Of a stretch of 64,000 nucleotides of DNA, positions 2,665-61,499 are shown in pieces (positions within the stretch are counted from its first letter, which is position 1; every line of letters starts with the position of its first letter). The notes below the pieces were generated by a model. That model worked only from the letters and a program-made list of their open reading frames with translations, ran no database searches and was not told the DNA's origin. The position numbers and the translations under genes are program-made. This stretch comes from Candidatus Aenigmatarchaeota archaeon (GTDB taxonomy: Archaea; Aenigmatarchaeota; Aenigmatarchaeia; GW2011-AR5): NCBI GenBank assembly GCA_016187335.1, contig JACPJW010000001.1, positions 384,001 through 448,000 on the forward strand, written 5' to 3'.

Positions 2665-2752
2665 AGCCCCATGGTGTAGAGATAAACCGCATTATGGTCA
2701 AGCATGATTGCCTCTGGAGCAATAGACCCAGGTTCGAATCCTGGTGGGGCTA
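2665..2752 (+). tRNA. tRNA-Gln(CUG) with 15-nt intron at 15/16 (2680-2694)
   Basis: Acceptor AGCCCCA/TGGGGCT; anticodon arm ATTGC-CTCTGGA-GCAAT; T-loop TTCGAAT; GTGT/GCAT 4-bp helix with AG^A and TA^T bulges; splicing gives a 73-nt cloverleaf. Confidence 0.92.
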
Positions 2753-2754
2753 TT

Positions 2755-3256
2755 ATGAAACTGCTGATGAAATTGCGGGATGAGGATATAGAGCTCGGTT
2801 CCAAAAAACAAAAGAAGCCGAAGCAACGCTTTGCTGCACGGGCTGTTTTGTTTAATGGAGATAAAATTGCCCTGCTTCATGTAACGAAACAGAAATATCA
2901 TAAGCTTCCCAGAGGCGGCATGAAAGGAAAAGAAAAAAATAAAAGGCGCGCTTTTCAGGGAAATCATGGAAGAAACCGGATGCAAAATAAAAGTGATTTC
3001 AGAAGTAGGGAAAATCATTGAGCACAGAACGCATATGAATTTACTCCAGACATCCTACTGCTATATTGCAAAAGTAACAGAAAAGAGGCAGGAAAAATTT
3101 GACAAAGGAGAAGTAAAGCACGGATTCAAGCTTGGATGGGTTGAAATAGATTTTGCAGCAAAAATACTCAAAAAGGAAAAGCCGCAGGATTACGAGGGCA
3201 GATTTATTGTTCTCAGGGACCTGAAATTCATTGAAACTGCCGAAGGAATGATGTGA
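2755..3256 (+). pseudogene. NUDIX hydrolase split by a one-base frameshift in an A7 run (2933-2939)
   Basis: The N-half of the Nudix box (LPRGG..KE) is in one frame and REIMEETG is in the next; deleting one A restores EKIKGALFREIMEETG. Confidence 0.7.
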
Positions 3257-3261
3257 TTGCA

Positions 3262-3708
3262 ATGAACATTGAAAAGAAGCGCCTGTTCGCGCTGTTTATC
3301 ATAGGGACATTCATTTTGTCTACGATAGCCTTTGTGTTTGTAGGCCTTGCAGGAAGGGCACCTGAGCAGGAACGGCAGAAAGCAAAGACACTCACGTCTT
3401 ATGTTATTGCTGAGGATGTAGACAGCGCTACAGAAGCAGAATACGTGAGCAGGGGATACACTTTCCTGAAGTTTTATTATAATGAAACGGCGCCTTTATT
3501 TCTGGACGGTCTTCCCTCAGCAATGATGGCCGGCAATGATATGCAGCTTTTTGTTTTGAAGATTCGCGACACGCAGAATTATGCCAGAATTGTGAACGTC
3601 CAGAATGATGTTGAGCTGAAGAATCTAACGGAAGAAAACATAACCAACGAGCTTTGCATCAGGCTTATCGTCACGCCATTGGAATGCAGCCTCAGGAATG
3701 TCTCTTAA
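3262..3708 (+). CDS. Hypothetical protein with N-terminal membrane anchor
   Basis: KKR followed by a hydrophobic helix, then a soluble domain. Confidence 0.7.
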   Translation: MNIEKKRLFALFIIGTFILSTIAFVFVGLAGRAPEQERQKAKTLTSYVIAEDVDSATEAEYVSRGYTFLKFYYNETAPLFLDGLPSAMMAGNDMQLFVLKIRDTQNYARIVNVQNDVELKNLTEENITNELCIRLIVTPLECSLRNVS

Positions 3709-3794
3709 TGTCATCTTTGAACCTTTTCAGTGTTTTCGGGATATCATTTTCATTCACCTTCAGCAGCCTGCTCAGCTCTTTCAGTATTCTTCTC

Positions 3795-6497: not shown

Positions 6498-7024
6498 TTA
6501 GGATCAACACGAATCAATTGAGGACTGAACAGTAAGTGATTTCTCAATTTTTGAATGCCTTTGGATATTATTTTTTTCTCCACACGTTTTATTTTTCCGT
6601 CCCAAGGATCGTATAGTTTATACTTACCTGCATTTTCATCTATCAGGACAATATAGTGAGGATAATGAACATTATTTTGGAAAACAAAACAATCCAAGTA
6701 TAAAATTACAGGCCCGTATTTTAGATTCTTTGACACAAAGTCAAGATTTATTTTGGCATGAACCAAGTCTATTTTTTTATTAAATTTAATTTTTGACCAC
6801 GAGCTAAAAAGCGTCTTGCTCTCTAGAAATAGTTTTAATTTTCTATTATATTTCCTGGTAAAATATTCAAGGTGACCTAATGCGAAACTATTTTTGGAAA
6901 ACCTCAGGCTGTAGTTTATGACTTTTAGTTCCCTATTTTTCGTCGGTTTTATTTTAACTGAGTAAAAAAGAGCGCATGCTAAACATGTTTCATAAGTTGT
7001 TTGCCTATAGAATCTTGAAGTCAT
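6494..7024 (-). CDS. Peptidase C39-like papain-fold protein
   Basis: QTTYETCLACAL (Gln/Cys), HYIVL (His) and YDPWDG (Asp) motifs. Confidence 0.7.
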   Translation of the reverse strand: MTSRFYRQTTYETCLACALFYSVKIKPTKNRELKVINYSLRFSKNSFALGHLEYFTRKYNRKLKLFLESKTLFSSWSKIKFNKKIDLVHAKINLDFVSKNLKYGPVILYLDCFVFQNNVHYPHYIVLIDENAGKYKLYDPWDGKIKRVEKKIISKGIQKLRNHLLFSPQLIRVDPK

Positions 7025-7025
7025 A

Positions 7026-7703
7026 TTACCACTCAGCTTCAGGATTATCTTTGTTAATCAAAAATCTTTGCGTAGTCGCCCCGCAGAATTTCCGGACGAG
7101 CAAATCAAGCTCTTCCGTCGCTGTCTCTACCATATTGTCGAATCCCTCCAGAACTATGACTGTGTTTTCCGTGTTCTCGGTCAGCTTTGTCTTGTCGGAT
7201 TCTCTCCAGTTCCAGCGCCTGCAAAGAACATTGCCGGCATCGTCGCAATAAATTACCTCGCCTTTATAGGGATTCTCCCGGCTTTCAGAGTTCAGAGGCA
7301 CGAATGTTTCATCGCCTTCGGCAAATCTGAGATAAATATTTCCTTCTATCTTGTCGAGGTCTTCGCCGCCTGCAGGAATAACATATTTCAGGGAGATAAA
7401 ATTGTACAGATCAACTGTCTTGTTGATGTGAGGAATATCCCGCCCTTTCAGGACGCTCCTTATCAATGCTTCCGCAGAAGACCTGTAGTCGCTGGGTTTT
7501 GAACCAAACGACGAATAAATTTTCCTCCAGGAAGAAATTGACGGGTGCTGTAACAGGCCAGATTTTATCGAACCCCGGATTTCTTTCAAAAGCATGCTTA
7601 TTTCCTGGTTCTCGCCATTGTTGTCGATGCCCGCAGCTACGATTACTCCTATCCTGACGTTAGGATATTTTTGAAGCAGCTCCTCAGAAACAACTAATTT
7701 CAT
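7026..7703 (-). CDS. B3/4-domain protein (PheT editing-domain homolog)
   Basis: WRKIYSSFGSKPSDYRSSAEALIR, INKTVDLYN, CRRWNWRES. Confidence 0.9.
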   Translation of the reverse strand: MKLVVSEELLQKYPNVRIGVIVAAGIDNNGENQEISMLLKEIRGSIKSGLLQHPSISSWRKIYSSFGSKPSDYRSSAEALIRSVLKGRDIPHINKTVDLYNFISLKYVIPAGGEDLDKIEGNIYLRFAEGDETFVPLNSESRENPYKGEVIYCDDAGNVLCRRWNWRESDKTKLTENTENTVIVLEGFDNMVETATEELDLLVRKFCGATTQRFLINKDNPEAEW

Positions 7704-7767
7704 CAGTATACCTACTAATAATTAGAAAAACGGCTTTAAAAAAAGCAGGAAAATTCTGCAAGAATTT

Positions 7768-8073
7768 TCAGCCGAACAATGAAGCAAGTCCGGACGCCGC
7801 TTCCTCTGCCTTCTTCTCAAGGTCTTCCTCAGGCTCCTTCTTTTCCTCAGTTGCAGCAGGAGCTCCGGCTGTAGGCGCAGCTGCGACAGCAACAGGCATC
7901 GCCGCCTTGCTTATTACCTCGTCGATATTGACGCCTTCCAGTGCAGCTACCAGTGCCTTTACCTTGGCCTCGTCCGGCTGCTCGCCTGCAGCTTGGACAA
8001 CTTTCTTCACGTTGTCCTCATTAACAGGCTTGCCAGCGGAATGAAGCAGCAGTGCGCTGTATACGTAGTTCAT
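7768..8073 (-). CDS. rpl12: Ribosomal protein L12 (aP1)
   Basis: [12 protein letters not shown]-terminus; Ala-rich hinge; GLASLFG end. Confidence 0.97.
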
Positions 8074-8076
8074 TTT

Positions 8077-17503: not shown

Positions 17504-17780
17504 TTTTTCACCATCGTTGAACATTCTCTCCTCTCCCCGTGCAGCAAAAATGCAAATCAAAACCGCAGAAAAGAGGAGCGAAGCATTATCGGCGCCTAGC
17601 GCTTGATGATAGACGCTAGGCTGACGTATCTCTTTGTCAAGTTCAGTATCCCGGCGTTTATCAACTGCTTCATACCAAGTCAATATATGCAATCCATGTG
17701 CTTAAATATCTTGCGGTTTGTCCCTACCCTACAGGAACAACATTGTGGGACATGGTGGGAATTAACCGTAGACGCATCCG

Positions 17781-17808
17781 TTTTGATGCAACTTTTTTGA
17801 AAAGTTGC
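17781..17808. repeat. Palindromic repeat copy (TTTTGA-NNN-AACTTTT..AAAAGTT family) in the tRNA-Arg trailer
   Basis: TTTTGATGCAACTTTTTTGAAAAGTTGC. Confidence 0.85.
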
Positions 17809-17810
17809 CA

Positions 17811-17936
17811 TGGGCGCGACGGGATTCGAATTCGCGAGTCATGGCTTCGCTCCATAACTTCCCGCGACCCCCTGCTTAGAAGGCTTGCATGTGATAAAAA
17901 TCACTAGATGCTCTATCCAAGCTGAGCTACGCGCCC
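17811..17936 (-). tRNA. tRNA-Arg(UCU) with introns at 29/30 (17885-17905) and 53/54 (17831-17860)
   Basis: Acceptor GGGCGCG/CGCGCCC; BHBs GCAT/ATGC (CT^A, AA^G) and CGCG/CGCG (GG^A, AA^T); splicing restores TCTGC-CTTCTAA-GCAGG and GCGGG-TTCGAAT-CCCGT. Confidence 0.93.
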
Positions 17937-18004: not shown

Positions 18005-18769
18005 ATGACTCGCATCATAACTTGCACTTCCGGGAAGGGTGGCGCAGGCAAAACTACATTGGTTGCTAACTTAGGGCTTGCATTGCGCGAGCTGGGGCGA
18101 GACGTGATAGTCGTTGACGCCAACCTGACGACGCCAAATCTGGGTTTACATTTAGGAGTTCCATTGTACCCGACGACGCTTCACGACGTCCTCAAAGGCA
18201 CTGCGGACATCAAGGATGCCATTTACCGCCACGAAAGCGGCCTGAAAGTTATCCCTGCGGGTATATCCCTGCGCGACCTGCGGGGGGTTGATGCGCATGA
18301 CCTCCCTGAAGCCGTCATGGATCTGCTCGGGAGCGCGGAAATAGTGCTGATTGACAGCGCAGCAGGCCTTGGCAAGGAAGCTTTGTCGGCTATAGAAGCA
18401 TCAGATGAAATCATAATAGTCACGACGCCGGACCTTCCTTCTGTCACGGATGCCCTGAAAACAATGAAGCTTGCCGAGCAGGTGGGGACAAGAGTTACCG
18501 GCGTTGTCATAAACAGGGTCACAAAAATGAGGCACGAAATGACGACCCAGCAGGTTTCCAACATGCTTGACGGTCCTGAGATTTTGGCGGAAATACCCGA
18601 GGATATAAACGTCCATAGAGCCGTGGCAAGCAGGCAGCCTGTTGTCCATCACGTGCCGCATTCACACGCCAGCAGAAGCATAAAGGGCCTTGCCGCAACG
18701 CTTGTCGGGGAGCCTTCCTTGACAAAAGATCCATGGTACAAGCGTTTTCTCTCGTTCATGTACAGGTAA
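18005..18769 (+). CDS. minD: MinD/ParA-family ATPase
   Basis: SGKGGAGKTT deviant Walker A, DANLTTPNL, IDSAAG. Confidence 0.9.
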   Translation: MTRIITCTSGKGGAGKTTLVANLGLALRELGRDVIVVDANLTTPNLGLHLGVPLYPTTLHDVLKGTADIKDAIYRHESGLKVIPAGISLRDLRGVDAHDLPEAVMDLLGSAEIVLIDSAAGLGKEALSAIEASDEIIIVTTPDLPSVTDALKTMKLAEQVGTRVTGVVINRVTKMRHEMTTQQVSNMLDGPEILAEIPEDINVHRAVASRQPVVHHVPHSHASRSIKGLAATLVGEPSLTKDPWYKRFLSFMYR

Positions 18770-18878
18770 ACTTCCTAAAAGAACATAAGTTCTTTTGGGT
18801 CTTGGAACGCTTTGCTTTCCAAAGATTTCCAAAAAGTTTCATCAAAGCAACTTTTCAAAAAAGTTGCATCAAAAAGGG
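18766..18878. repeat. Composite of palindromic repeat units between minD and pheT
   Basis: AAAAGAAC-ATAA-GTTCTTTT, a degenerate CCAAAAAGTTTCATCAAA and GCAACTTTTCAAAAAAGTTGCATCAAAAAGGG. Confidence 0.75.
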
Positions 18879-23948: not shown

Positions 23949-23975
23949 TTTTTGATTAAACTTTTTAAAAAGTTC
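23949..23975. repeat. Palindromic repeat copy between convergent glyS and CBS genes
   Basis: TTTTTGATTAAACTTTTTAAAAAGTTC. Confidence 0.85.
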
Positions 23976-25116
23976 ACCTGAACTTTCTCAGCTGCCCGCT
24001 TTTCTTGGCGGCTTCGTGCCTTTGTACCTTCCCGTATTTTTTCTTTATTTCCCGTTCCAGCTTGCCCAGAACATCCTGCGCAACGTCAAGAGGCTTCCAG
24101 CCCATTGAGTGAGACACGAAAAGCCCCAGCGGCGTGCCTATTCTCGCGCGCATCACATAGCGGATTTTCTTATCGCCACCGCCATGGTCGTTCTGCCTCT
24201 CTACATGAACAAAGAGATATTGTACGCTGTCCATCATCCTCCCGATTTTCTGGACAAATCTTGTTGTTGCCTCGTCCACGCCGGCAATCAGTTCGCTGCT
24301 TTCGCCGTGAAGCCCAGTGACTTGCACGTAAACCTGTTTTTTAGGGCCTGAAACGAGCAGTTCAAGGATATCCTTTGGGGTTATTATTCCCGGCTCGCCG
24401 TTCATGACGATAACTTCTTCGCTTTTCTGCAGTAAGTCCAAAGCCCTTTCCAGAGGAGAGTTTTCTTTCAGTATGGCAGCAGCATGCATGAAAGATTCCA
24501 CGCCAGCACTTTCAGTGGACATCTTTTCGCTGGCGCCCCGCTCCTTTGTTTTTCCTCTCATCTCCATTTTTTCTTTTCCTTCGAGCAGCTTTATCATGTC
24601 CAGCGTCCCTACGACCCCGAGAACCTTTTGGCCGTCGATAACAGGGACGCGCGATACGTTTTTGTTGAACATGATTTTTTTGACTTTCCCGGCATTGTCA
24701 CCTTTCGACACGCACTCACACTTGACAGCAATATCCCCGCAGGTTTTCTTCGTGTTCATCAGTTTTGATGCAACCTTGACAACATCATATTCGGAAACAA
24801 TACCCACCAGATTCCCTTTGTCCACAACAGGAACAGCCCTTAATCCCGTGTTCAGTAGGAGTTCTATGATTTTCTGCAAGTCATGCTCCGGCGAAGCAGT
24901 GGAAGTGCTCGTTACGTAGTTCTCAACCTTTGTTGACTGTATGTCTATGTCCTTTGTAACAATGTTTTTCAATTCAAGCAGCCCGAGAACATTCTTCCCT
25001 TCAACGACAGGAAGCCGGTGGATATTGTATTTTTTCATCTTGGCCAATGCCGTGTTCAATGTGTCGCCCCTTCCGCAGGTTATCACGTTTCTGGTCATGA
25101 TTTCGCTTACTTTCAT
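23974..25116 (-). CDS. Four-CBS-motif protein with a C-terminal HPF/RaiA-like domain
   Basis: Repeated CBS motifs (VSEIMT, LPVV, GIVSEYD, VPVID, GIITPKD); C-terminal beta-alpha-beta-beta-beta-alpha pattern ending QDVLGKLEREIKK. Confidence 0.8.
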   Translation of the reverse strand: MKVSEIMTRNVITCGRGDTLNTALAKMKKYNIHRLPVVEGKNVLGLLELKNIVTKDIDIQSTKVENYVTSTSTASPEHDLQKIIELLLNTGLRAVPVVDKGNLVGIVSEYDVVKVASKLMNTKKTCGDIAVKCECVSKGDNAGKVKKIMFNKNVSRVPVIDGQKVLGVVGTLDMIKLLEGKEKMEMRGKTKERGASEKMSTESAGVESFMHAAAILKENSPLERALDLLQKSEEVIVMNGEPGIITPKDILELLVSGPKKQVYVQVTGLHGESSELIAGVDEATTRFVQKIGRMMDSVQYLFVHVERQNDHGGGDKKIRYVMRARIGTPLGLFVSHSMGWKPLDVAQDVLGKLEREIKKKYGKVQRHEAAKKSGQLRKFR

Positions 25117-25223: not shown

Positions 25224-26504
25224 ATGGCTAAAGACGGTAAATCCAAAAAAGAACATGTAAGAGTCATGGTAAGAAATTTTGAAGTAGGTAGTGACGAATT
25301 ATTCATAATAGCAGGCCCTTGTTCTGTTGAAAGCCGAGACCATATCATAGAAATGGCTTATTTAGTTAGAGGTGCTGGTGCTGATGCCCTACGTGGCGGT
25401 GCTTTCAAACCACGCACAGAAGCTGGTAAATTTGATGGCTTGAAAGAAAATGGTTTAAGGTATCTGGTTGAAGCTAGAGAAAAGACAGGATTGCCGATAG
25501 TTACTGAGATAATGGCAATAGAAGATATCCCATTATTTCAACAATACGGTGTTGATGTATATCAAGTAGGAACAAGAAATGCCCAGAACTTCCCCCTATT
25601 ACATGCACTCGGAGATCTTGGTGTAACTGTTTTGCTGAAGAGAGGAATGGGAAACAAAGTTGAGGAATGGCTAGGTGCTGCAAGTCATGTAGTTTCAAGA
25701 AGGAATAAAAATCTGATTTTGTGTGAACGAGGAGTGTCTACATTTGATTCTAAGTTATTCAGAAACATGGCGGATATTGCAGGAATGGCTTACGCAGAAA
25801 TGGAAGATAAATATCCGGTTTTATTTGACCCAAGCCACGCAACCGGTATTAGAAAACTTGTTCGTCCAATGTCTCGCGCTGCTGTTACAGCAGGCGCTGA
25901 CGGGCTTTTAATAGAAGTTCATGATGATCCGAATTACGCAAAAACAGATGGTCAACAGAGCATATACCCACGTGAGCTTGAATTTTTAATAAAGGAAGCT
26001 AGGCGACTTAGAGCAGAATATATTGATTCGACGGCAGGACATGAAAAATGGATGGAAAAGCTGCAACCTAACATGACAATATACTTTCAGAAGGAATATC
26101 TAGATGATGTATGCGCTTTATTGGGATCTGATGCAGAGAGATTGAGGGTCAGGTCATACGGAGAAGACACAGGAATTCTTCAGGCAAGGGTAAAGACAGG
26201 TCATGTAGGAAAATTAAAACAAAAAGGCGGTTATGCTATCGGAAGACTTTCGATGTGGAGTTCAGGTCCTGGAGAACCAGCTACAATACCGATGGCGAGT
26301 GTTGAGGCAGGGGGTCAACCAAAAACAATTCTAACCCTTTACGACAAAGAATTATTAGAAGACGCAGGTAAAAAGACAATAGACCAACGATACACACATC
26401 TTAGAAGATTACAAGTGAGACAATCGCACCCGGGAGATTTAGAACTTATAGCAAAAGCCTTTACGACTTATACGGATAGACCTCTTATTCTATATCAACC
26501 ATAG
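25224..26504 (+). CDS. aroF: DAHP synthase (class I-beta) with a C-terminal extension of about 160 aa
   Basis: IAGPCSVES, RGGAFKPRT, QVGTRNAQN, LKRG, CERG, DPSHATG, IEVH, DGQQS. Confidence 0.85.
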   Translation: MAKDGKSKKEHVRVMVRNFEVGSDELFIIAGPCSVESRDHIIEMAYLVRGAGADALRGGAFKPRTEAGKFDGLKENGLRYLVEAREKTGLPIVTEIMAIEDIPLFQQYGVDVYQVGTRNAQNFPLLHALGDLGVTVLLKRGMGNKVEEWLGAASHVVSRRNKNLILCERGVSTFDSKLFRNMADIAGMAYAEMEDKYPVLFDPSHATGIRKLVRPMSRAAVTAGADGLLIEVHDDPNYAKTDGQQSIYPRELEFLIKEARRLRAEYIDSTAGHEKWMEKLQPNMTIYFQKEYLDDVCALLGSDAERLRVRSYGEDTGILQARVKTGHVGKLKQKGGYAIGRLSMWSSGPGEPATIPMASVEAGGQPKTILTLYDKELLEDAGKKTIDQRYTHLRRLQVRQSHPGDLELIAKAFTTYTDRPLILYQP

Positions 26505-27113
26505 TCAAGGCTTATGTCTTGTAATAGCGTAGTAGGTCACGTCTCCTTCGTTATCCACAATCGCCCATAACATCCTTGCTCGTATGTTGTGGGCAAGCCT
26601 GACAGAGCGCGAAAGTTCCTGGAACGACATGGTGAAATCCTCCGGCACCGAGAAAACTATCCATTTCGTGTGCTCTTTGGCGGATTTCGGCCCTTTCTTC
26701 AGCTGCACGCCCCTTTCATACACGCGGAAGTCGCAGCCGAACTTGAATCCTGTCCTGACAAGCAGCCCGCGCTCCCTGAGGTCTTCGTAAACGCGGTAGC
26801 GCTCCGTGAACCTTTTGTCCAGAGCAGAAGAATGCCTGAACAGCTCGTCGAATGTTATTTGTTTCTTGCTGCTGTCAAAGACCCTTATCCTGCCGCGCTT
26901 CAGCAGCAGGCACGCTTCTACCAGAGCCAGTTCAAGCCTGTCAGGAAGAATTTTGCCGTAATAGCCGGGCTCGTAAACGCTTTCAAAGTTTTTCCATGCA
27001 ACTGCTTTGTTCTCTTCCAGCGTTGTATCCACAACTTCTTTGAAAGGCTCCGGCTCCACGTATTCCGGTCTATCCTCTTCAGAATCATGCTTTTTCTTGG
27101 ACATTTTGAACAC
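26505..27113 (-). CDS. endA: tRNA splicing endonuclease (catalytic-type subunit)
   Basis: LALVEACLL, YEDLRERG, TGFKFGCDFRVY, H, VRLAH, AIVDNEGDVTYY. Confidence 0.94.
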   Translation of the reverse strand: MFKMSKKKHDSEEDRPEYVEPEPFKEVVDTTLEENKAVAWKNFESVYEPGYYGKILPDRLELALVEACLLLKRGRIRVFDSSKKQITFDELFRHSSALDKRFTERYRVYEDLRERGLLVRTGFKFGCDFRVYERGVQLKKGPKSAKEHTKWIVFSVPEDFTMSFQELSRSVRLAHNIRARMLWAIVDNEGDVTYYAITRHKP

Positions 27114-27912: not shown

Positions 27913-28149
27913 TGGGAAGGGAGGGATTTCCAGAACTTTTCATCGTTTTCCTCGAAGAACATCAGTTCTTCGGTATCTCGGAGAACTATCGTTCTCCGCA
28001 GATGATCGAACTTTTCTGAAAAGTTCGTTTGGACCCTCGACATTCCCGGCGTAGCACCAATCAAGTGCTATGCTCCACGGTCTTCAGCCGTGTGCTCTCC
28101 CAGGCTTTGCCAACCGAAAAAATCATTCTCGGTTTTGAGCTACCTTCCC
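27913..28149 (-). tRNA. tRNA-Phe(GAA) with three introns: 14/15 (28106-28135), about 44/45 (28043-28074) and 59/60 (27927-28027)
   Basis: Acceptor GGGAAGG/CCTTCCC; anticodon arm CACGG-CTGAAGA-CCGTG; BHB TCCA/TGGA perfect; AGCT/GGCA one mismatch; variable-region BHB imperfect; spliced length 74 nt. Confidence 0.88.
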
Positions 28150-28571: not shown

Positions 28572-28690
28572 CGCCCCGGGACGGACTCGAACCGTCGACC
28601 TTCTGCAATTAGTCAAGAAATCCAAAAACTTGCTTGACTGTTAACAGCCAGACGCTTTAGGCGTCTATCTACCTGCTGAGCTACCAGGGC
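28572..28690 (-). tRNA. tRNA-Asn(GUU) with introns at 22/23 (28657-28668) and 39/40 (28606-28639)
   Basis: Acceptor GCCCTGG/CCGGGGC; helices AGGT/GCCT and GTTA/TAAT with 3-nt bulges; splicing restores TCTGG-CTGTTAA-CCAGA. Confidence 0.92.
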
Positions 28691-35550: not shown

Positions 35551-35640
35551 TTTTTTGACAGAACTTTTTCCTAAAAAGTTCTTTTTGATTAAACTTTTTC
35601 CTAAAAAGTTCTTTTTGATTAAACTTTTTCCTAAAAAGTT
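35551..35640. repeat. Three tandem 30-bp palindromic repeat units
   Basis: (C/T)TTTTTGA(TTA/CAG)AACTTTTTCCTAAAAAGTT x3; units 2 and 3 identical. Confidence 0.95.
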
Positions 35641-36695
35641 TAGAAGAAGACCTTCCAGAACAACAGGCTCAATTCAAACTGATCGCCGCCAATTGATGAA
35701 AGGAGAGAGCTTTCCGAAAAAGACGGCGCCGGTGTTTTCTTGAAATTGTCCATTTTGTAATGTTCACCGGAAGCCCACATAAGCGCCGCCTTCGTAAGGT
35801 TCTTCGTCTCCTGCGCGCCCTGAGTGTCTTTTGCATAGTCGTATCCCGAAAACCACACGGTTCGCCCATGGTTGTTCACAATGAACTGGTTTATCTTCAC
35901 ATAGGATATCTGGTTTCCTGGCGATGTTATTATAACGGACTTGTCCGTTACTTCAATCTGGTTTACGCCGCCGCCTGAAAATTCGCTGAATGCCGCGCTG
36001 GCGGGGTCTTTGCCAGTTAAGCCTCTGTAATATTTCGCTATCTTGTAAGAAACCTTTGAAGGCGTTACGGTGCTGTAAAATATTCCTTCGCCCCCGCCGC
36101 TCCCGGTCCACCTCAAATCAAAGACGCTGTTCATGAATCCGTCGCTTACCTGGTTTTCCGTCAGGTGCCCGAGCATGAATATTGTCCCGCCGCCGTCAAG
36201 GAAGCTGTTCAGCGCTGACATGTACGGATTGAGATTCTCATACCCGATTATGAAGGCAACGTCGGTCCGGGGGTTTATGTTGTTCAGGTTGTCGAGCCTC
36301 TGGATCCTCACGTCTATTTCCCTGTCCTTGTAGCCGAAGCGAAGAGGTGCAAGGAGAGATTCAAGGTCATCTTTCTCTGTTTCACTGCAGAAGCATTCGA
36401 CGTAAATTATGTCGTTGGGAATATCCCTGACTTCCAGCGAGAATTCTATGTTAGGGGGAAGGGTTTTCCTAAGGTCGTTGTTCAGCGAAGCTGCGTCATT
36501 GTTCTTCACATAGCCGGCAAGTTTGCCGCTTTTTTCCAAAGCAATAAGCGATTCCTTTGTCCTGGTGCTCAGAACCACGTCGTCCCACGAAGTCTGCTGC
36601 GTTGTGGGCAGGAAAAAATAGGATACTGAGGCTATGAGGATTATGGAAGCTATGATGGCTTCAAGCACCCTTATGAAACCTTTCATTATACCCAC
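35640..36695 (-). CDS. Pilin-like protein with class III signal peptide
   Basis: MKG|FIRVLEAIIA followed by a hydrophobic segment; located in the pilus locus. Confidence 0.75.
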   Translation of the reverse strand: MGIMKGFIRVLEAIIASIILIASVSYFFLPTTQQTSWDDVVLSTRTKESLIALEKSGKLAGYVKNNDAASLNNDLRKTLPPNIEFSLEVRDIPNDIIYVECFCSETEKDDLESLLAPLRFGYKDREIDVRIQRLDNLNNINPRTDVAFIIGYENLNPYMSALNSFLDGGGTIFMLGHLTENQVSDGFMNSVFDLRWTGSGGGEGIFYSTVTPSKVSYKIAKYYRGLTGKDPASAAFSEFSGGGVNQIEVTDKSVIITSPGNQISYVKINQFIVNNHGRTVWFSGYDYAKDTQGAQETKNLTKAALMWASGEHYKMDNFKKTPAPSFSESSLLSSIGGDQFELSLLFWKVFF

Positions 36696-41430: not shown

Positions 41431-42150
41431 TCAGATTAAGTCCAGATTTATGACGGTTTTTGTTATGATCTTGCCGTTTTCTTCCGTTTCCGACGTGCCT
41501 TTGCTTTCAATTATGATTGAGTGGTCAAGGCCGGCGCTTTTGACCTGGTCTGAAGTGAGCACAAGAGAATAAACCCTTATAGTCTGCGTTTTCAGCGGCA
41601 CATATCGCAGCGTATAAGATGTCAGGTACTTGTTTTCGTCAAGCTTCACGCTCTTGACGCACAGGATGCCTGCGTCGTCAGAGCCCCATGCCCCTTCCGA
41701 AGCCGTGCACGTGCTGTTCTTCAGCGGTATCTCCGCGCCCGTGGCGTATATCGTCCCTTGCGTATCTGCGTCGAGCTGGATTACCCAGCCGTTCGGGCTG
41801 CTGTCTATTTTCACGATGCCTGACGCCGTGATTTTCAGCTGGTCTCGTCCGCCGGTGTTTGCAACTGTCTTTATCTTGCTGTCCAGGGTTTTCATGAACT
41901 GCTCGCTGCTCTGCAGCAGCGAGACGTCCTTGTTTTTCTGTATAAGGGGTATTCCCCAAAGATAGACGGATCCCACGATGCCGATCAGTATCCCGCTCAG
42001 GAGTATCGCCGTGACAGCCTGTTCCTGGCCTTTAGAGGAGAAAAACCAAGGTTTTTCTCCCTCTACCCTCTTTTCCTTATTATTTTTTGATAGAACTTTT
42101 TTGTAAAAAGTTCTTCTCATTCCCTTATTAGAAATATTATTTGACATCAA
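41431..42150 (-). CDS. Pilin-like protein with an extended signal-peptide N-region
   Basis: SSKG|QEQAVTAILLSGILIGIVG; the N-region contains two palindromes. Confidence 0.75.
   Translation of the reverse strand: MMSNNISNKGMRRTFYKKVLSKNNKEKRVEGEKPWFFSSKGQEQAVTAILLSGILIGIVGSVYLWGIPLIQKNKDVSLLQSSEQFMKTLDSKIKTVANTGGRDQLKITASGIVKIDSSPNGWVIQLDADTQGTIYATGAEIPLKNSTCTASEGAWGSDDAGILCVKSVKLDENKYLTSYTLRYVPLKTQTIRVYSLVLTSDQVKSAGLDHSIIIESKGTSETEENGKIITKTVINLDLI
42037..42114. repeat. Two palindromes inside the pilin leader coding region
   Basis: GGAGAAAAACC-AA-GGTTTTTCTCC (42037-42060) and a TTTTTTGATAGAACTTTTT..AAAAAGTTCT family copy (42083-42114). Confidence 0.85.
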
Positions 42151-42252: not shown

Positions 42253-42660
42253 TCACACTATGGGCGCGGCTGGCATTCTTGGTCTTGCCATTTTCTTGGA
42301 CATCGCTGACATGAGGATGGCATTAACGCGCTTTTCTAATTTTGCCAGACGCTCGTCCATCTTCCTTTCAAGCTGTGGCGACTCTTCCTTTACTTCCTCG
42401 CCTTCTATCTCAACCCGTGCCATGAAATCATCCAGTCTTGCCGTCAGCGCGCTCACGGACTGAATAGTGCTGTTCACCCTGTCAACCATCTCCGAGTTGC
42501 TTTTCACTATTTCATCCACAATCTGCTGGTTTGTCTTGACTATTTCCATCAAATCCTTCATCAATTCCTCGGAACCGCCGGACCGCTCAATCTTGTCAAC
42601 CCTTTTTTCCAGCCGCCTTACCGGATTCATAGGCACAAGCTCGTATTCGTCTTCTTCCAT
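42253..42660 (-). CDS. Conserved coiled-coil protein next to the pilus locus
   Basis: MEEDEYELVPMNPVRRLEKRV followed by heptads; GGTG upstream. Confidence 0.75.
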   Translation of the reverse strand: MEEDEYELVPMNPVRRLEKRVDKIERSGGSEELMKDLMEIVKTNQQIVDEIVKSNSEMVDRVNSTIQSVSALTARLDDFMARVEIEGEEVKEESPQLERKMDERLAKLEKRVNAILMSAMSKKMARPRMPAAPIV

Positions 42661-42681
42661 GAACAATACACCACATATCCG

Positions 42682-42709
42682 TTTTGATAGAACTTTTTTG
42701 AAAAGTTCT
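42682..42709. repeat. Palindromic repeat copy
   Basis: TTTTGATAGAACTTTT..GAAAAGTTCT; shares the ATCCG flank with the copy at 17776-17808. Confidence 0.85.
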
Positions 42710-42746
42710 CTTTTATTATATTTGCAAAAGCGGTATAAATAGGTTT

Positions 42747-43064
42747 TCACGATCTCAAAGAGCTTCGCTCTTTGAGAATGTCCCCGAAAGCCCGGCAGAA
42801 ATATTCCTTTGCACGCATAACGGCTTTCTTGCCCTCAGGCGTCAGCGAGTACACAATTATTTTGCCCCTTTTATCCCCCTTTATGAGGCCCTTGCTTTTC
42901 ATGTCCTTCAGCGCAGGGTATATCGTTCCTGCCTTGGGCTTCTCGCCCCGGCGCTTCCCTATCTCCCCGGCAAGCTGCTCGCCGTTCATCTCCTTCTTTG
43001 ACAGAAGCCATAAAACCTGGAAGGACAGCATCCCCCGCATGTCGCAGCCGTGATCATGTTTCAT
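42747..43064 (-). CDS. PadR-family transcriptional regulator
   Basis: MRGMLSFQVLWLL, GTIYPALK, YSLTPEG. Confidence 0.9.
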   Translation of the reverse strand: MKHDHGCDMRGMLSFQVLWLLSKKEMNGEQLAGEIGKRRGEKPKAGTIYPALKDMKSKGLIKGDKRGKIIVYSLTPEGKKAVMRAKEYFCRAFGDILKERSSLRS

Positions 43065-43144
43065 AGCAATTATAGGGCATCCTATATATTTAAATACATG
43101 ACCGATACATAATATCGGATATCCTATATGCAGGAAGTGATGAA

Positions 43145-43747
43145 ATGGCGTTTGACAAATTGGGAAGCGATGAAAGCATTGAAAAGGCTGTGGCTTCCTT
43201 GAAAGCCAACGGCATAGAAGCCTTTGTGGTTGAGAACGGCGAGCAGGCAAAGCAGAAAGCCCTGGAAATGATACCGGAGGGTGCGGAAGTGATGAACATG
43301 ACCTCCGTCACGCTTGATGCAATCGGCTTGACGGAAGAAATAATGTCTGGAAGGAATTCCGTCCGCAAAAAACTTATGAGCATGGACAGGACCAAGCATG
43401 GCAGCGAGATGAAAAAACTGGGGATTGCGCCTGATTACGCTGTCGGAAGCGTCCACGCCATTACCGAAGACGGCAAGGTGCTTATCGCTTCCGCTTCCGG
43501 GAGCCAGCTTCCCGCTTACGCTTACGGGGCAGGCAAGGTTATCTGGATAGCAGGCACCCAGAAGATTGTGAAAAATCTGGAGGAAGGCATGAAGCGGATT
43601 TATGAGTATACATTGCCGCTGGAGGACCAGAGGGCGAGGATAGCATACGGCGTCGGGAGCGGCGTCAACAAACTGCTGGTTGTAAACAAAGAATTCGCGC
43701 CCGGAAGGATAACCCTGATACTAGTGAAAGAAAAGCTCGGTTTCTGA
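43145..43747 (+). CDS. LUD-domain (LutC/YkgG-like) protein
   Basis: SVHAITEDG, ASASGSQL, GTQKIV, RITLILV. Confidence 0.85.
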   Translation: MAFDKLGSDESIEKAVASLKANGIEAFVVENGEQAKQKALEMIPEGAEVMNMTSVTLDAIGLTEEIMSGRNSVRKKLMSMDRTKHGSEMKKLGIAPDYAVGSVHAITEDGKVLIASASGSQLPAYAYGAGKVIWIAGTQKIVKNLEEGMKRIYEYTLPLEDQRARIAYGVGSGVNKLLVVNKEFAPGRITLILVKEKLGF

Positions 43748-44019: not shown

Positions 44020-44122
44020 AGAACTCTGAGAAGTTCTGCCCTTTTGGTTAAACTCCTTCGAAGAACAAAGTTCTTCGAGGTCTCAGAGAAACTTCGTTTC
44101 TCTGCAGATTTTGGAAAAGTTT
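44020..44122. repeat. Composite multi-hairpin intergenic element homologous to the tRNA-Phe 59/60 intron
   Basis: CGAAGAAC-AAA-GTTCTTCG and CAGAGAAAC-TTC-GTTTCTCTG followed by CAGAT, collinear with 27950-28003. Confidence 0.85.
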
Positions 44123-45767
44123 ACTCCATGTCCATGTCTTCGCCGCCGGGCATTCCGCCAGGGCCGCCTCTCGGCATGCCGCCGCCGGACTTTGACGTTA
44201 TGACGTCGTCTATGCGCAGTATCATTTCCGCCGCTTCCGTTGCGGACTTGATGGCCTGCGTCTTTATCTTCAGCGGCTCGACGACGCCGTTCTTCTTCAT
44301 ATCCTCTACTTTTCCGTTGACAACATCTATGCCGTAAGCGGATTTTCCTTTGTCGTGCAGCGTCCTTAACTCTACAAGAAGATCAATAGGATCGCGTCCA
44401 GTGCTTTCAGCCAGCGTTCTTGGAATTATTTCAACAGCCTCGGCAAACGAATTTATTGCCAGCTGTTCTCTTCCGCCGACGGATTCTGCGTATTCCCTGA
44501 GCTTGCGGGCGATCTCTATCTCTACGGCTCCGCCGCCGTAGACAACCTTGCCTACTTCCAGGGCAGAAATAACACCCAGGACTGCGTCGTCCATTGCGCG
44601 CTTCGCCTCGTCAACAACATGCTCCGTTCCGCCGCGCACAAGAATGCTTACTGATTTAGGATCCTTGCAGTCGCGGACAAAGATCATCTCTTCGCCGGCA
44701 ATCTTCTGCTCCTCAACTAATCCGGCATAGCCTAAATCATCCTTTGATATCTCTTCCAGGTTCGAAACGATGTTGGCGCCCGTGGCTTTTGCCAGCTTTT
44801 CCATGTCGCTTTTCTTCACGCGCCTTGCAGCTATAGTGCCTTCCTTGGCAAGATAATGCTGCGCTAAATCATCAATGCCTTTCTGGCAGAAAACAACATT
44901 GCATCCTGTCGCTGACACCTTCTTTACCATTTCCTTGAGCATCTTTGTTTCCTGCTCGAGAAACGCCTGAAGCTGGTCAGGTGATGTTATTCTTATTTCC
45001 GCGTTCGTTTCGGTTTCCTTTACCTCCAGAGCCACATCCAGCAGCACTATTTTCGCATCCTTGACGCGCTTTGGCATGTTAGGATGCACAACTTCCTTGT
45101 CAATGACAATTCCCTTTATCAGTTCCGTGTCGTCAATTGAGCCGCCCTGCTTCTTCTCTATTTTCACATCGTCCTTGTCGATGACAACCTTGCCGTTGTC
45201 CTGTTCCGCGACCATCTTGACAGCTTCAACGGCTAATTTCGCCAGGGATTCCTTTGCCGCTTCGCCGCCCTTCCCTGTCATTGCTGTCATCGCTATTTTC
45301 TGCAGCATTTCCGTGTCATTAATGTCAATGTCTTCGCCTATTTCCTGCAAAACTTCCAGCGCTTTTGTCTTCGAAAGCCTGTAACCCCTTACGATCATCG
45401 TGGGATGTATTTCCTGCTCCAGAAGACCCTCTGCTTTCTTCAGCAATTCACCAGCAAGAATTACTGCCGTGGTCGTGCCGTCGCCGACCTCGTCTTCCTG
45501 CGTCTTCGCCACTTCAACAATCATCTTTGCGGCAGGATGCTCTATTTCCATGTCCTCCAGTATTGTCGCGCCGTCGTTGGTTATGGTGACGTCACCTATA
45601 GAATTAACAAGCATCTTGTCCATGCCGCGCGGGCCCAGCGTAGTCCTTACAGACTCAGCAACGGCTTTCGCTGCCATTATGTTGCGCGACTGCGCGTCCC
45701 TTCCAGTGTTCCTCAAAGTGCCTTCCGGCAGGATGAATATAGGCTGTCCGCCAAGCTGGTTCACCAT
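44121..45767 (-). CDS. ths: Thermosome (group II chaperonin)
   Basis: [37 protein letters not shown] tail. Confidence 0.98.
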
Positions 45768-45813
45768 TTCAAATACACCTCGTTAATAGAATTTCTTTCC
45801 ATGCACGCTTTCA

Positions 45814-45843
45814 TTTTTGACGCAACTTTTTCCTAAAAGTTGC
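45814..45843. repeat. Palindromic repeat copy upstream of the thermosome gene
   Basis: TTTTTGACGCAACTTTTTCCTAAAAGTTGC. Confidence 0.85.
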
Positions 45844-45919: not shown

Positions 45920-46498
45920 TCACAGGAACGACAGGCCGTAGCTTCCCAGATGAAGCCTGTAGTGAGACCTTACGTTATCGCTTCCAAAATAGTTCAGCAG
46001 GCCGAGACTTCTTGCCGCTTTCAGCGCATGAGTCCATGCGAACCTCTCTGAAAATCTTTCGTATTCCTCATCCCCGAACGCTTTTATGCAGAATTCATGC
46101 ACGGCCGCCAGCTGCTCAGAGTAAGACCCTGACAGGCTGCCGTGGCATAGTAAGGCATGGAGCGAGTCGTAAGTTTTTGCATGTCCTATTTCATGAAAAG
46201 ACGACAGGATCCTTATCTCCCTTTCCCGCAGTTTCGGAATGCTTATTTGTATCTCCGGCACTGGCCTTATGACGCCGTTCTCCCTTATGCAAATTTTGAA
46301 ATTGGACCTGACAGGAATGAAAGTCCATCTGCCATTTTCCAGCAGATCGTTGAGCCTTATTACGCTTCCATTTACACGGTAGTCGAAGAAATAGTTGCCA
46401 CCTTCATGGGATTTGTCTTTGTAGAATGAAACCCCGTTTCCATTTTGATATTCGATTGAGCCCTCTTCGTATATTCTTGATGTAGGATTAGTATTCAC
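45920..46498 (-). CDS. Hypothetical protein with HExxH metal-binding motif
   Basis: FHEIGHA and downstream SERFAW. Confidence 0.6.
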   Translation of the reverse strand: MNTNPTSRIYEEGSIEYQNGNGVSFYKDKSHEGGNYFFDYRVNGSVIRLNDLLENGRWTFIPVRSNFKICIRENGVIRPVPEIQISIPKLREREIRILSSFHEIGHAKTYDSLHALLCHGSLSGSYSEQLAAVHEFCIKAFGDEEYERFSERFAWTHALKAARSLGLLNYFGSDNVRSHYRLHLGSYGLSFL

Positions 46499-47501: not shown

Positions 47502-47660
47502 GGGCCGGTAGCTCAGTGGTAGAGCACCTGTCTTATACGACGTGTTTTCTTAATTGGAAAAAGAAAACATTGCTAAGCCAGCAGGGGGTCGAGAGTCCGA
47601 TACAAACTTTTCCAAAAAGTTTGATCAAAAGGGAAAGTTGCGGAATCCTCTCCCGGCCCA
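47502..47660 (+). tRNA. tRNA-Ile(UAU) with introns at 37/38 (47538-47579) and 59/60 (47602-47646)
   Basis: Acceptor GGGCCGG/CCGGCCC, A73; BHBs CTTA/TAAG (TA^C, CC^A) and TCCG/CGGA (AT^A, AT^C); spliced anticodon loop CTTATAA. Confidence 0.9.
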
Positions 47661-48177: not shown

Positions 48178-48464
48178 CTTCAGCGTTATTTTTTTCTAAA
48201 TCCAGGCAAAAATAAAAAAAGACTGATTTAATTGATAACAAATAAAGTATTAAAGCCTATTTCTGAAAAAGCACGAAGAAAATTTTGGAAAATTTTTCAA
48301 TGTTGCCGCATTTTCAGGAATCAAAAGGCTATTTCAAACCTCAGAAGGAAAAAAAGAAGCAGTAAGTATATGGCAATCATCCCGAGCACAACGTATTTTT
48401 CTTCTTTTGGCATAATTTTATTTCTTTGCCACGCTTAAAAAGATTTTTGCCTTATTTTTTCGGT

Positions 48465-48971
48465 ATGACAGAATATTTTGATGTCGTGGACGAAGGAAAC
48501 AGCGTAATAGGAAGGGCAGCAAGGGAAGAATGCCACTCCAAAGGCTTGTGGCACAGGGCTTCGCACGTAATTATAGTTAATTCTAAGGGCGAGCTGTTAT
48601 TGCAGAAAAGGAGCATGAAGAAGGATCTGTACAAGGGGTACTGGATTGACGCAGCAGCGGGCCATGTGGACAGCGGAGAAGCCTATGAACACGCAGCAAA
48701 AAGGGAGCTGAAGGAAGAAATTGGAGTAACCGCTGCATTGATGCAGCTTTTTGATTTCAAGAAACAAACGGGCAATGACAATGAAATAATTAGGGTATTT
48801 GCAGCGAGGCACGACGGGCCGTTTTTTCCCAACAAGGAAGAAGTCGATTTTGTCAAGTTTTTCACTCTTGAGGAAATAAACGAGATGCTGAAAAAAGACA
48901 AATTCACCCCGGCAACCCTGGATATTCTCAAGGAAATAAACAGGGACCCGTCAATACTAAGCAGGTTTTAA
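48465..48971 (+). CDS. NUDIX hydrolase of the IDI-1/YfcD-like group
   Basis: DVVDE, HRASHV, LLLQKRS, AAAGHV, AKRELKEEIG; lacks the IDI-1 catalytic Cys. Confidence 0.8.
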   Translation: MTEYFDVVDEGNSVIGRAAREECHSKGLWHRASHVIIVNSKGELLLQKRSMKKDLYKGYWIDAAAGHVDSGEAYEHAAKRELKEEIGVTAALMQLFDFKKQTGNDNEIIRVFAARHDGPFFPNKEEVDFVKFFTLEEINEMLKKDKFTPATLDILKEINRDPSILSRF

Positions 48972-48996: not shown

Positions 48997-49109
48997 GGGC
49001 TTGTAGTCTAGAGACCCTTTAGAAAAAGCGTCTACGAAAAGGGTTGGAAAATGGTTATGACGTCGCCTTCACACGGCGAAGGTCGGCGGTTCGAATCCGC
49101 CCGAGCCCA
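48997..49109 (+). tRNA. tRNA-Val(CAC) with 40-nt intron at 15/16 (49012-49051)
   Basis: Acceptor GGGCTTG/CGAGCCC; anticodon arm TCGCC-TTCACAC-GGCGA; helix GTCT/GGAA with AG^A and AA^T bulges. Confidence 0.93.
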
Positions 49110-49111
49110 TA

Positions 49112-49134
49112 GCAACTTTCTGGAAAAAAGTTGC
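49112..49134. repeat. Palindromic repeat copy in the tRNA-Val trailer
   Basis: GCAACTTTCTGGAAAAAAGTTGC, starting 2 nt after the discriminator base. Confidence 0.8.
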
Positions 49135-49162
49135 ATTTAAGCATTACGATATTAGTGGAAAT

Positions 49163-55971: not shown

Positions 55972-56072
55972 CAGAATAATTGAAGGAAAGGCTTAAATGA
56001 AGTTCAGAATGTTGAGGCAGAAGTCCCGGGCAAAGCTCTGTTGGAGGCAGAAAACCAATCTCCCTTTTGTTC

Positions 56073-60590: not shown

Positions 60591-60769
60591 CGTTGAACAC
60601 CGGAAAATACCATAACGGAAAGAAAAGGGAAATCCCAGGCATAACCTTTCTTTTCCGCCTTAATTACCCTTTTAAACCTAACTCTGTTGCTTAATTTTTT
60701 AAGCATTGAATGGTACTCTTATTAATCAAAGCCAGTGAGGTCATGTAGTCAGTTCTCGATGGTGCTTTC

Positions 60770-61207
60770 ATGACAGAATGCGAAATGTGCGGCTGGAACG
60801 GCGATTTGGTCAGGGCCAACGTCGAGGGCACGATCCTGAGGGTCTGCAAAAAATGCTCCGTCCTGGGCGCAAAAATGGAAGAAGCGAAAACGGAGCAGAA
60901 GCCGCTGAGTTTAGCCAGAAAGATGGAAATCTCCGAATTCGTGCCGGATTTTGCCGAGAAAATAAGGCACGCCAGGGAGTCAGCAGGAATGAACAAAAGC
61001 GACCTGGCGCGCAGGATTGGCGTGAGCCCGTCATTGCTGTCGCGCATCGAGAAGGGCATGCGCCCTACCGATGCTTTGGCAAGAAAGCTGGAAAAAGAGC
61101 TGAAGATAGGCTTGTTCTACACGGACACATTGACCACGGTAAAGGCGGAAAGAACGCCTGAAGTAACCCTAGGCGACGTCGTTGAGCTGAGGATAAGGAA
61201 GAAGTAG
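60770..61207 (+). CDS. mbf1: Archaeal multiprotein bridging factor aMBF1
   Basis: CEMCG...VCKKC Zn ribbon, cro-HTH, TLGDVV. Confidence 0.92.
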   Translation: MTECEMCGWNGDLVRANVEGTILRVCKKCSVLGAKMEEAKTEQKPLSLARKMEISEFVPDFAEKIRHARESAGMNKSDLARRIGVSPSLLSRIEKGMRPTDALARKLEKELKIGLFYTDTLTTVKAERTPEVTLGDVVELRIRKK

Positions 61208-61324
61208 TTTTTTCTAAAGCGGACATTCCATTTCCGATGGTTATCCCACGTTTTCTTATTTAAGTCTTGGCAAATTATTAGCAAAAGCAAACTGACTGAT
61301 ACACTTTGTACGTCAGTCAGGAAT

Positions 61325-61499
61325 GGCCATTAAGAATCGGCATTGCTGGTAATGACTTAATCATGGCCGCCATGGTGTAGAAAGCCCTTTTTGACGCTTC
61401 GCTTATCAAAAAGCGCTTGCGGAAATAATTAGGGTTTGCAAATTGGTAGCATCGGAGCCTGTGGAGCTCCTTGGCTGGGTTCGAATCCCAGTGGCGGCC
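61325..61499 (+). tRNA. tRNA-His(GUG) with 63-nt intron at 15/16 (61381-61443) and a probable 40-nt intron at 2/3 (61328-61367); without the latter the gene starts at 61365
   Basis: Encoded G-1 opposite C73; acceptor GCCGCCA/TGGCGGC; anticodon arm GGAGC-CTGTGGA-GCTCC; helix GTGT/GCAA with AG^A and AT^T bulges. Confidence 0.9.

Follow-up and report, generated by a model that had tools for sequence, protein, structure and literature searches.

A dispersed hairpin repeat as a probable source of a subset of the tRNA introns in a groundwater aenigmatarchaeote

RESULTS

All seven tRNA genes of the window are interrupted

We analyzed a 64,000-nucleotide (nt) stretch of DNA (the window; positions 384001-448000 of the 918-kb contig C2, JACPJW010000001.1) from a Candidatus Aenigmatarchaeota genome that originates from groundwater and comprises two contigs (1.01 Mb; 90.8% complete). 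The window contains seven tRNA genes, all of them interrupted, with 12 inserts in total, the gene of the tRNA-splicing endonuclease EndA, and 13 copies of a 35-base hairpin repeat, whose relation to the tRNA introns is the subject of this work. Coordinates refer to the window unless preceded by C2.

2665-2752, plus strand: tRNA-Gln(CTG), with intron 14/15 at 2679-2695 (17 nt, unique sequence)
17811-17936, minus strand: tRNA-Arg(TCT), with intron 29/30 at 17885-17905 (21 nt) and intron 53/54 at 17831-17860 (30 nt)
26505-27113, minus strand: EndA gene, 202 amino acids (aa), PF02778 and PF01974, a single alpha-type subunit and the only PF01974 match of the genome
27913-28149, minus strand: tRNA-Phe(GAA), with D-loop intron 14/15 at 28106-28135 (30 nt), a variable-region insert at about 28040-28071 (about 32 nt) and intron 59/60 at 27927-28027 (101 nt)
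28572-28690, minus strand: tRNA-Asn(GTT), with intron 22/23 at 28657-28668 (12 nt) and intron 39/40 at 28606-28639 (34 nt)
47502-47660, plus strand: tRNA-Ile(TAT), with the canonical intron 37/38 at 47538-47579 (42 nt) and intron 59/60 at 47602-47646 (45 nt)
48997-49109, plus strand: tRNA-Val(CAC), with a D-loop intron at 15/16 or 16/17 (49013-49050 or 49012-49051; 38-40 nt)
61366-61499, plus strand: tRNA-His(GTG), with a D-loop intron at 15/16 or 16/17 (61382-61442; 61-63 nt) that belongs to a second repeat family (family 2; see below)

ARAGORN and the Rfam tRNA model detected only fragments of these seven genes. In the whole genome, the Rfam model gave 21 matches at E<=1, most with large insertions, and ARAGORN reported two clean tRNAs in about 1 Mb; to standard finders of this type, such genomes look tRNA-poor only through these inserts. 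The genes were resolved with a splicing solver guided by the bulge-helix-bulge (BHB) motif. Candidate introns were listed by BHB geometry (on each side, a helix strand of 4 nt is followed by a bulge that the cut divides into two bases and one base, and then by the inner helix), up to three were removed, and the product was scored as a cloverleaf. The solver first reproduced a hand analysis of tRNA-Asn. It found a BHB motif at 11 of the 12 inserts, with 3 to 4 of the 4 central-helix pairs and a flanking helix, and predicted removal gave near-maximal cloverleaf scores (33-34) for all seven tRNAs.

The solver returned the same intron positions as a first-pass annotation made from the sequence alone, which had counted 12 clear introns and a probable one at 2/3. 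The 12 inserts were recovered; a 2/3 intron need not be assumed, given that none of the seven acceptor stems is disrupted. The annotation had also proposed that removal at BHB sites yields canonical cloverleaves, which held for 11 inserts and failed for the Phe variable-region insert near 44/45 (28040-28071, minus strand). No acceptable BHB was found there, the best candidate having 3 of 4 central pairs without flanking helices. This 32-nt insert contains a 6-bp hairpin and is 100% identical in the congener (a genome of the same genus, 56% complete, with shared genes 70-80% identical at the DNA level), despite differing neighbor introns. Because it lacks a BHB and is identical in both genomes, it may be a very relaxed intron or an arm retained in the mature tRNA. 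In tRNA-His, the extra G-1 is encoded in the gene (61365) and the discriminator is C, the usual archaeal state.

A hairpin repeat is dispersed over the genome

Read in the direction of the upstream gene, the repeat (family 1) has the form NN-AACTTTT-loop-AAAAGTT-N'N'-ATCAAAA-(C/G)GGAA. Its left edge is sharp, the ATCAAAA tail holds 1.3-2.0 bits per position, and the outer NN and N'N' are complementary in 109 of 114 copies, with nine pair types; one variant has the loop GCTGCTCC. The commonest 12-mers of the genome all derive from this repeat. The expression AACTTT-N1-12-AAAGTT matched 121 times in 1.01 Mb, and the copy number was 86-121. Copies within the genome are 93-100% identical over 28-31 nt, and orthologous copies have diverged between the congeners.

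An nhmmer search gave 179 matches at E<=1 in the genome versus 0 in the reversed genome. Furthermore, an independent profile built from 76 copies, all outside the window and without tRNA-like flanks, detected the 59/60 introns of Ile (E 1e-7) and Phe (E 1.5e-4), the Arg trailer (E 1.4e-7) and ten other places in the window. The resulting 13 copies agree with the dozen or so estimated in the first pass. These searches remove, for the Phe and Ile introns and the Arg trailer, the concern that intron cargo resembles intergenic repeats no more than shuffled A/T hairpins would; for some of the other cargo named in that annotation, the concern stands. The copies lie as follows.

17777-17810, minus strand: copy in the Arg trailer, starting 2 nt past the discriminator base; present also in the congener
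18826-18878, plus strand: one partial and one full tandem copy past the 3' end of gene 18005-18769; empty in the congener
23949-23979, minus strand: copy whose left arm TGAAC includes the stop codon (TGA) of gene 23974-25116; the congener site is empty and already reads TGAAC
28003-28030, minus strand: copy in the Phe 59/60 intron, which consists of three hairpin modules
35551-35644, minus strand: three tandem copies (period 30) that begin at the stop codon (TAA) of gene 35640-36695; the congener site is empty
42084-42114, minus strand: copy in a pilin-like leader, within the open frame (leader MRRTFYKKVLSK...KG/QEQAV); absent from the congener ortholog
42678-42708, minus strand: copy between genes 42747-43250 and 42253-42750; the congener site is empty
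45811-45843, minus strand: copy lying between the start of gene 44121-45767 and a conserved TATA-like box; both congeners have it
47601-47635, plus strand: copy in the Ile 59/60 intron, of which it makes up nearly the whole, the rest being the distal arm GGGAAAGTTG and CGGA-AT
49109-49136, plus strand: degenerate copy in the Val trailer (E 0.56), matched in position by a strong copy in the congener

The copies survive where they are least harmful: on or after stop codons, 2 to 3 nt past tRNA 3' ends, in the cleaved-off pilin leader and in stable-RNA genes. In 20 of the 43 copies near which a long open reading frame ends in the sense direction, the stop codon lies at -5 to -2 of AAC, inside the base of the stem. 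The copy that the first-pass annotation had placed in a signal-peptide coding region was located at 42084-42114, in the leader of a type IV pilin-like protein; the frame is open across it from the only ATG, the predicted start. At least two type IV pilin-like proteins (leader ...KG/QEQAVTAILLSGILIG), encoded at 41431-42150 (minus strand) and at C2:81527, have the hairpin in the leader-coding region after the same GGGAATGAG start context.

Three other readings of the repeat were rejected. The letters of a C/D-box-like 'TGATGA...CTGA' are variable stem and loop positions. A promoter role does not fit either, since the repeat sits downstream of genes and the tRNA genes have ordinary upstream TATA-like boxes. 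Intergenic family-1 copies do not form a BHB, their flanks being direct tail repeats and not complementary.

Few of the introns contain repeat sequence

Family 1 is limited, among the tRNA loci of the window, to the two 59/60 introns (Phe and Ile), the Arg trailer and, weakly, the Val trailer. Two of the 12 inserts thus carry family 1, and one more, the His D-loop intron, carries the related family 2 (AAGCCCTTTT..ATCAAAAAGCGCTTGCGGAAA). When every intron was compared with the genome by blastn, eight proved to be unique sequences, and the Val intron had a single, marginal 15-nt match to the Phe trailer (E 0.02). The earlier view that the cargo of the Phe and Ile 59/60, Val and His introns is the intergenic repeat therefore applies to Phe and Ile, is marginal for Val, and does not apply to His, whose sequence is of the different family.

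The AAGCCCTTTT..AAAAGCGCTTGCGGAAA portion of the His intron was found at three other loci, at least two of which are D-loop introns of other tRNAs. The two families are joined by a common ATCAAAAAGCG tail, which also occurs in a composite intergenic insert. The Phe 59/60 intron has near-identical counterparts at C2:236574-236670 (94.8% over 97 nt) and C2:716690-716770 (88.9% over 81 nt), flanked by differing exons. A 350-nt intergenic cluster of hairpin modules at C2:79114, absent in the congener, includes GAAGAAC-loop-GTTCTTC, a module that recurs in the Phe 59/60 intron.

A covarying splice helix is predicted at the 59/60 introns

The Ile 59/60 intron consists, in order, of one base, the hairpin unit, ATCAAAA, the distal arm GGGAAAGTTG and CGGA-AT. 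The ViennaRNA minimum-free-energy fold of the T-arm with this intron comprises the T-stem, UCCG paired with CGGA, two 3-nt bulges and an inner helix, i.e., a full hBHBh' structure. In this predicted fold, the inner helix is formed by the 5' arm of the element plus two loop bases, paired with the distal arm. In six 59/60 introns of this genome, the exon 4-mer at positions 54-57 and the 4-mer at the intron 3' end are complementary throughout (TCCA/TGGA, TTCA/TGAA twice, TTCG/CGAA twice, and TCCG/CGGA). Moreover, another tRNA holds a 95%-identical copy of the Phe intron, and the two differ at precisely the base that compensates. Since all six pairs covary perfectly, compensating base included, the sequences provide strong evidence that the central BHB helix of the 59/60 introns forms and matters. 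The single EndA gene of the genome was located in the window. Alpha4-type EndAs with an extra loop are described for several DPANN lineages having heavily disrupted tRNA genes (PMC5829648).

Introns and repeat copies differ between congeners

At 11 of the 15 comparable sites the congener has no repeat, and 4 sites are common to both genomes. The empty sites correspond to 18826/18846, 23949, 35551 (three copies), 42084, 42678, the Ile and Phe 59/60 introns, and C2:69821, 79114, 81063 and 81527-81699. The first-pass view that the repeat is mobile-like is supported by this insertion polymorphism. At C2:76478, different repeat subfamilies directly follow the same stop codon in the two species.

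Presence and absence in orthologous tRNAs, the comparison that the annotation had proposed, revealed that both 59/60 introns are absent from the congener. Its tRNA-Ile has the 37/38 intron in common with the genome studied here but an uninterrupted 7-nt T-loop (TTCGATC), one base off the predicted spliced sequence, and a strong repeat in the trailer. Its tRNA-Phe lacks the D-loop intron, with GCTCAGCCTGGGAGAGC matching the predicted spliced D-arm exactly, and also lacks the 59/60 intron, with a T-loop (TCCAAAT) equal to the predicted spliced product; it has an extra intron near 28/29 and a repeat in the trailer. Thus, in both cases (2 of 2), the congener has the repeat in the trailer and an uninterrupted T-loop, and the genome studied here has it in the 59/60 intron and not in the trailer.

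The other tRNA genes differ as well. The congener tRNA-Asn has three introns (16/17, 30/31 and 38/39) versus 22/23 and 39/40 here, and tRNA-Val has two introns elsewhere versus one here, none being common in either gene; the Val trailer repeat is common. In tRNA-Arg, both introns and the trailer repeat are common, and the congener has one extra intron. As these intron sets differ so widely, intron turnover between the two congeners is very fast, and it is mostly repeat-free.

At six readable empty sites, the host already has 2 to 6 bases of the left arm (TAA, AGAA, TGA, TGAA, TGAAC and TAACTT). Because the length of this pre-existing match varies, the inserted DNA starts at varying points in the arm. 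To judge from these six sites only, the variable start resembles copying guided by microhomology more than the precise cut of a transposase.

No RNA run was listed as containing this DNA. Three groundwater DNA runs gave no usable insertion polymorphism, their contigs being of the same strain and broken at tandem repeats. For a 20-kb synteny query (C2:234500-254499), no orthologous block was found in the 56%-complete congener. Three window genes (25224-26504, 45920-46498 and 48426-48971) lack a counterpart at the corresponding syntenic position of the congener, in which about 4.5 kb is inserted between the EndA gene and the next gene.

Orientation is linked to transcription and, separately, to the strand

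Between two minus-strand genes, 54 repeats were co-oriented with the genes and 6 were not, whereas the ratio between two plus-strand genes was 10:12. Because of this difference, we conclude that a transcription-linked orientation bias and a separate strand bias are both present. Indeed, about 77% of the copies lie on one strand beyond the effect of gene orientation, and the intron copies examined with their flanks all lie in the tRNA sense direction. Runs of T are at most 4 long on the sense strand in 80% of the copies and at least 5 long on the antisense strand in 59% (67 of 114), an asymmetry that fits selection against termination inside transcripts. About 60% of the genes of C2 are on the minus strand, and its negative GC/AT skew runs the same way nearly throughout, with no replichore switch visible. 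A replication-linked reading of the repeat orientation was set aside because neither GC skew nor gene-strand bias flips along the contig.

The repeat recurs in other lineages, and no mobilizing enzyme was found

A pattern count gave 86 copies in this genome, 26 in 0.5 Mb of the congener and 0 to 8 in 39 other genomes of the family or order; the reversed-pattern control gave 0 everywhere. Twenty copies sampled from eight other genera included 12 in tRNA introns, 1 in a tRNA trailer, 2 in 23S rRNA and 1 beside or within the signal recognition particle (SRP) RNA; few were plainly intergenic. A stricter 21-base pattern occurs at 118 or more loci (at least 118), against a rough chance expectation of about 1-20. 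Among the matches listed are Micrarchaeota, Woesearchaeota, Iainarchaeota, Nanoarchaeota, Altiarchaeota, Methanosarcinales, anaerobic methanotrophic archaea of group 1 (ANME-1), Thermoplasmatales, Methanocaldococcus, and some Clostridia and other bacteria; these loci are often tRNA introns or trailers and elsewhere parts of larger repeats. Methanosarcina sp. MSH10X1 (NZ_SCHL01000001.1) has five hairpin-plus-tail copies arranged in perfect tandem, with a period of 83 and spacers that are all identical. In Clostridia, Cloacimonadota and Oligoflexales, a larger repeat recurs in which a GC-rich hairpin and 'AACCCG/ACCCCA' precede the hairpin plus ATCAAAA.

The first-pass annotation had suggested a partner transposase of the HUH or IS200/IS605 type. 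None was found: this 90.8%-complete genome contains no match to Y1 transposases or TnpB above the cutoff. At 18 bits, below the cutoff, a 45-aa frame (C2:791846-791974; '...FFSRGKLANSIGYATFDVIERYVRNQEKHH') is similar to the tyrosine region at the C-terminus of IS200/IS605 TnpA and is possibly a decayed transposase; no repeat adjoins it. Of 301 genomes of the phylum, 54 encode Y1 transposases. No repeat was present within about 1.5 kb or less (to the contig end) of 14 Y1/tnpA loci of the phylum, and no copy within the same distance of 4 tnpA loci in Methanosarcina and Acutalibacter genomes that hold the repeat.

DISCUSSION

We favor, with reservations, the explanation that a non-autonomous hairpin repeat spreads at the DNA level and, in T-loops, supplies the inner BHB helix, so that predicted removal by EndA renders the insertion harmless; this would explain a subset of the introns. 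Under this model, a short repeat of this kind would be proliferating in this genus of Aenigmarchaeota. Inside T-loops, its 5' arm and two loop bases pair, in the predicted structure, with the distal GGGAAAGTTNN to give the inner helix, and four more bases with T-loop positions 54-57. The single EndA would then excise the insert and a ligase would reseal the tRNA; in this way, the element may found, or may itself be, the 59/60 introns. It would spread most likely by DNA-level copying from another copy, using a few bases of left-arm microhomology (host TAA, TGA, GAA or TGAAC), as the few readable sites suggest.

The first-pass annotation had gone further, with an element similar to miniature inverted-repeat transposable elements (MITEs) or repetitive extragenic palindromic (REP) sequences that uses EndA to neutralize insertions in tRNAs. 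A dispersed hairpin family inside BHB-bounded introns, its polymorphism and the presence of EndA support this idea, but not as a general rule, with 2 of 12 inserts carrying the repeat and eight being unique. The repeat is one source of introns, not the source, as most non-canonical introns here turn over without it. Because no mobilizing enzyme was found and most turnover is repeat-free, we confine the proposal that the repeat seeds introns to this subset.

Several observations weigh against a repeat that simply inserts into DNA. Its orientation follows that of transcription: co-oriented repeats outnumber the others 54:6 between minus-strand genes, and the intron copies examined with their flanks all read in sense. 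With only one outgroup, gain and loss at the empty sites are not polarized. The genome has no Y1 or TnpB match above the cutoff, and the 14 loci of the phylum and the 4 in Methanosarcina and Acutalibacter have no repeat copy within about 1.5 kb or less (to the contig end). In relatives with 1-8 copies, about 15 of the 20 sampled copies are in stable-RNA genes, an enrichment that is unexpected from neutral DNA insertion alone. Finally, the recurrence of 21 bases across archaeal phyla and some bacteria, among the matches listed, hints at constraint by a conserved partner.

Because of this concentration in stable-RNA genes, the repeat could equally be an intron module that escaped to intergenic DNA. 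The hairpin plus tail would then be a BHB-intron module of stable RNAs, moved by recombination, gene conversion or an RNA intermediate of EndA and ligase, and intergenic escape would be particular to this genus. Such an origin would account for the tRNA introns, trailers, 23S rRNA and SRP RNA that hold the module in low-copy genera, for the many copies in tRNA introns of other phyla among the matches listed, for a subfamily specialized to introns (CC loop and distal GGGAAAGTT), for a sharp left boundary 1-2 nt from the 5' splice site, and for near-identical 59/60 introns in three different tRNAs. However, no reverse transcriptase was found, though no search aimed at one was made, the intergenic copies have neither the distal arm nor the 4 exon-matching bases, the module belongs to larger intergenic repeats without tRNA context in Methanosarcinales and bacteria (among the matches listed), and the left-junction microhomology fits DNA copying. 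We regard an intronic origin as unlikely, though worth serious attention.

The positions on stop codons and 2-3 nt past the discriminator of several tRNAs, in both congeners, could also mark a selected sense-strand cis-element at the ends of transcription units, such as a hairpin in 3' untranslated regions or trailers that would shield or label the 3' ends of RNAs or stop antisense transcription, with presence in introns being secondary. Co-orientation with flanking minus-strand genes, the asymmetry of T-runs, the two subfamilies at one post-stop site in two species and, among the matches listed, the conservation across phyla agree with such a role. We know of no protein that binds the hairpin repeat. 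A functional signal is hard to reconcile with 11 of 15 sites that are not conserved between congeners, with 0 to 86 copies among related genomes of the same gene content, with tandem arrays and a putative in-frame coding copy, and with the 10:12 orientation between plus-strand genes, and we consider it quite improbable.

Mobilization as single-stranded DNA, as by REP-associated tyrosine transposases (RAYTs) or IS200/IS605 elements, would make TTGAT plus the hairpin the site of a Y1 (HUH) transposase that acts in trans and is lost or unassembled here. TTGAT is the target site or transposon-associated motif of ISDra2. In the repeat, a conserved TTTTGAT abuts the 9-bp stem on one strand, like GTAG in REPs; the strand bias, the Y1 transposases elsewhere in the phylum and the TnpA-like remnant of this genome point the same way. 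TTGAT and ISDra2 are also named together in PMC2806898 and PMC8612924. The likeness to ISDra2 is a resemblance only, and this route appears very improbable: no intact Y1 or TnpB gene was found in the genome, the 18 sampled tnpA loci elsewhere have no element copy within about 1.5 kb or less, the copies are in direct tandem and not in inverted REP doublets (REPINs), and the position of the left junction within the arm is variable, whereas HUH cleavage is precise. DNA-level spread of a non-autonomous repeat, with a share in the 59/60 introns, stays our preferred explanation.

How archaeal tRNA introns arrive is an open question, and the locus described here represents one concrete, if partial, candidate route of gain. 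Intron gain and loss are very fast here, since congeners at 70-80% DNA identity have few non-canonical introns in common. The case is tractable, with a known donor sequence, sister species that differ in filled and empty alleles of the same tRNA genes, covariation in support of the splice helix, and an intron core that about 100 non-tRNA copies have in common with it. One may speculate, with considerable doubt, that the hairpin plus ATCAAAA of DPANN archaea, Methanosarcinales, ANME-1, Thermoplasmatales, Altiarchaeota and others is a general vehicle of BHB-intron gain in archaeal stable-RNA genes, moved by an undescribed RNA-level process (EndA and ligase) or by microhomology-primed copying, and constrained by a conserved partner.

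The repeat resembles several known systems in part. Like bacterial REPs and REPINs, it combines a short conserved single-stranded motif with a covarying hairpin, is present in tens to hundreds of copies, most of them shortly downstream of genes, and shows lineage-specific bursts. Unlike in REPIN-RAYT systems, no RAYT or Y1 gene was found here, the copies are in direct tandem and not in inverted pairs, orientation is linked to transcription, and some copies form putatively spliceable introns in RNA genes. With the ends of IS200/IS605 elements and derivatives of the palindrome-associated transposable element (PATE) type, e.g., those of ISDra2, it shares TTGAT directly 5' of a hairpin on one strand, a strand bias and the lack of a target-site duplication; it differs in having one hairpin only, a variable left junction and, in the 18 sampled loci, no autonomous partner with these ends. 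The copy in the predicted frame of the pilin-like leader (42084-42114) recalls the Rickettsia palindromic elements (RPEs), small palindromic repeats within reading frames that are left open, but it is the only candidate of this kind in the window, most copies being extragenic or intronic, and the sequences are unrelated.

The transposed (paralogous) tRNA introns of Thermoproteales (Fujishima et al. 2010) are summarized in PMC4090602 and were re-measured in bioRxiv 10.64898/2026.10.13.758758. Both systems have near-identical BHB introns in tRNAs of different identity (95% and 89% for Phe 59/60) and apparently recent gain. In contrast to the Thermoproteales, the intron core here is the dominant dispersed repeat of the genome, and most of its copies are found elsewhere than in tRNA genes: behind stop codons, in trailers and in a putative coding leader. 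The module also occurs in other phyla, and its host here belongs to the DPANN archaea and encodes one EndA, of the alpha type.

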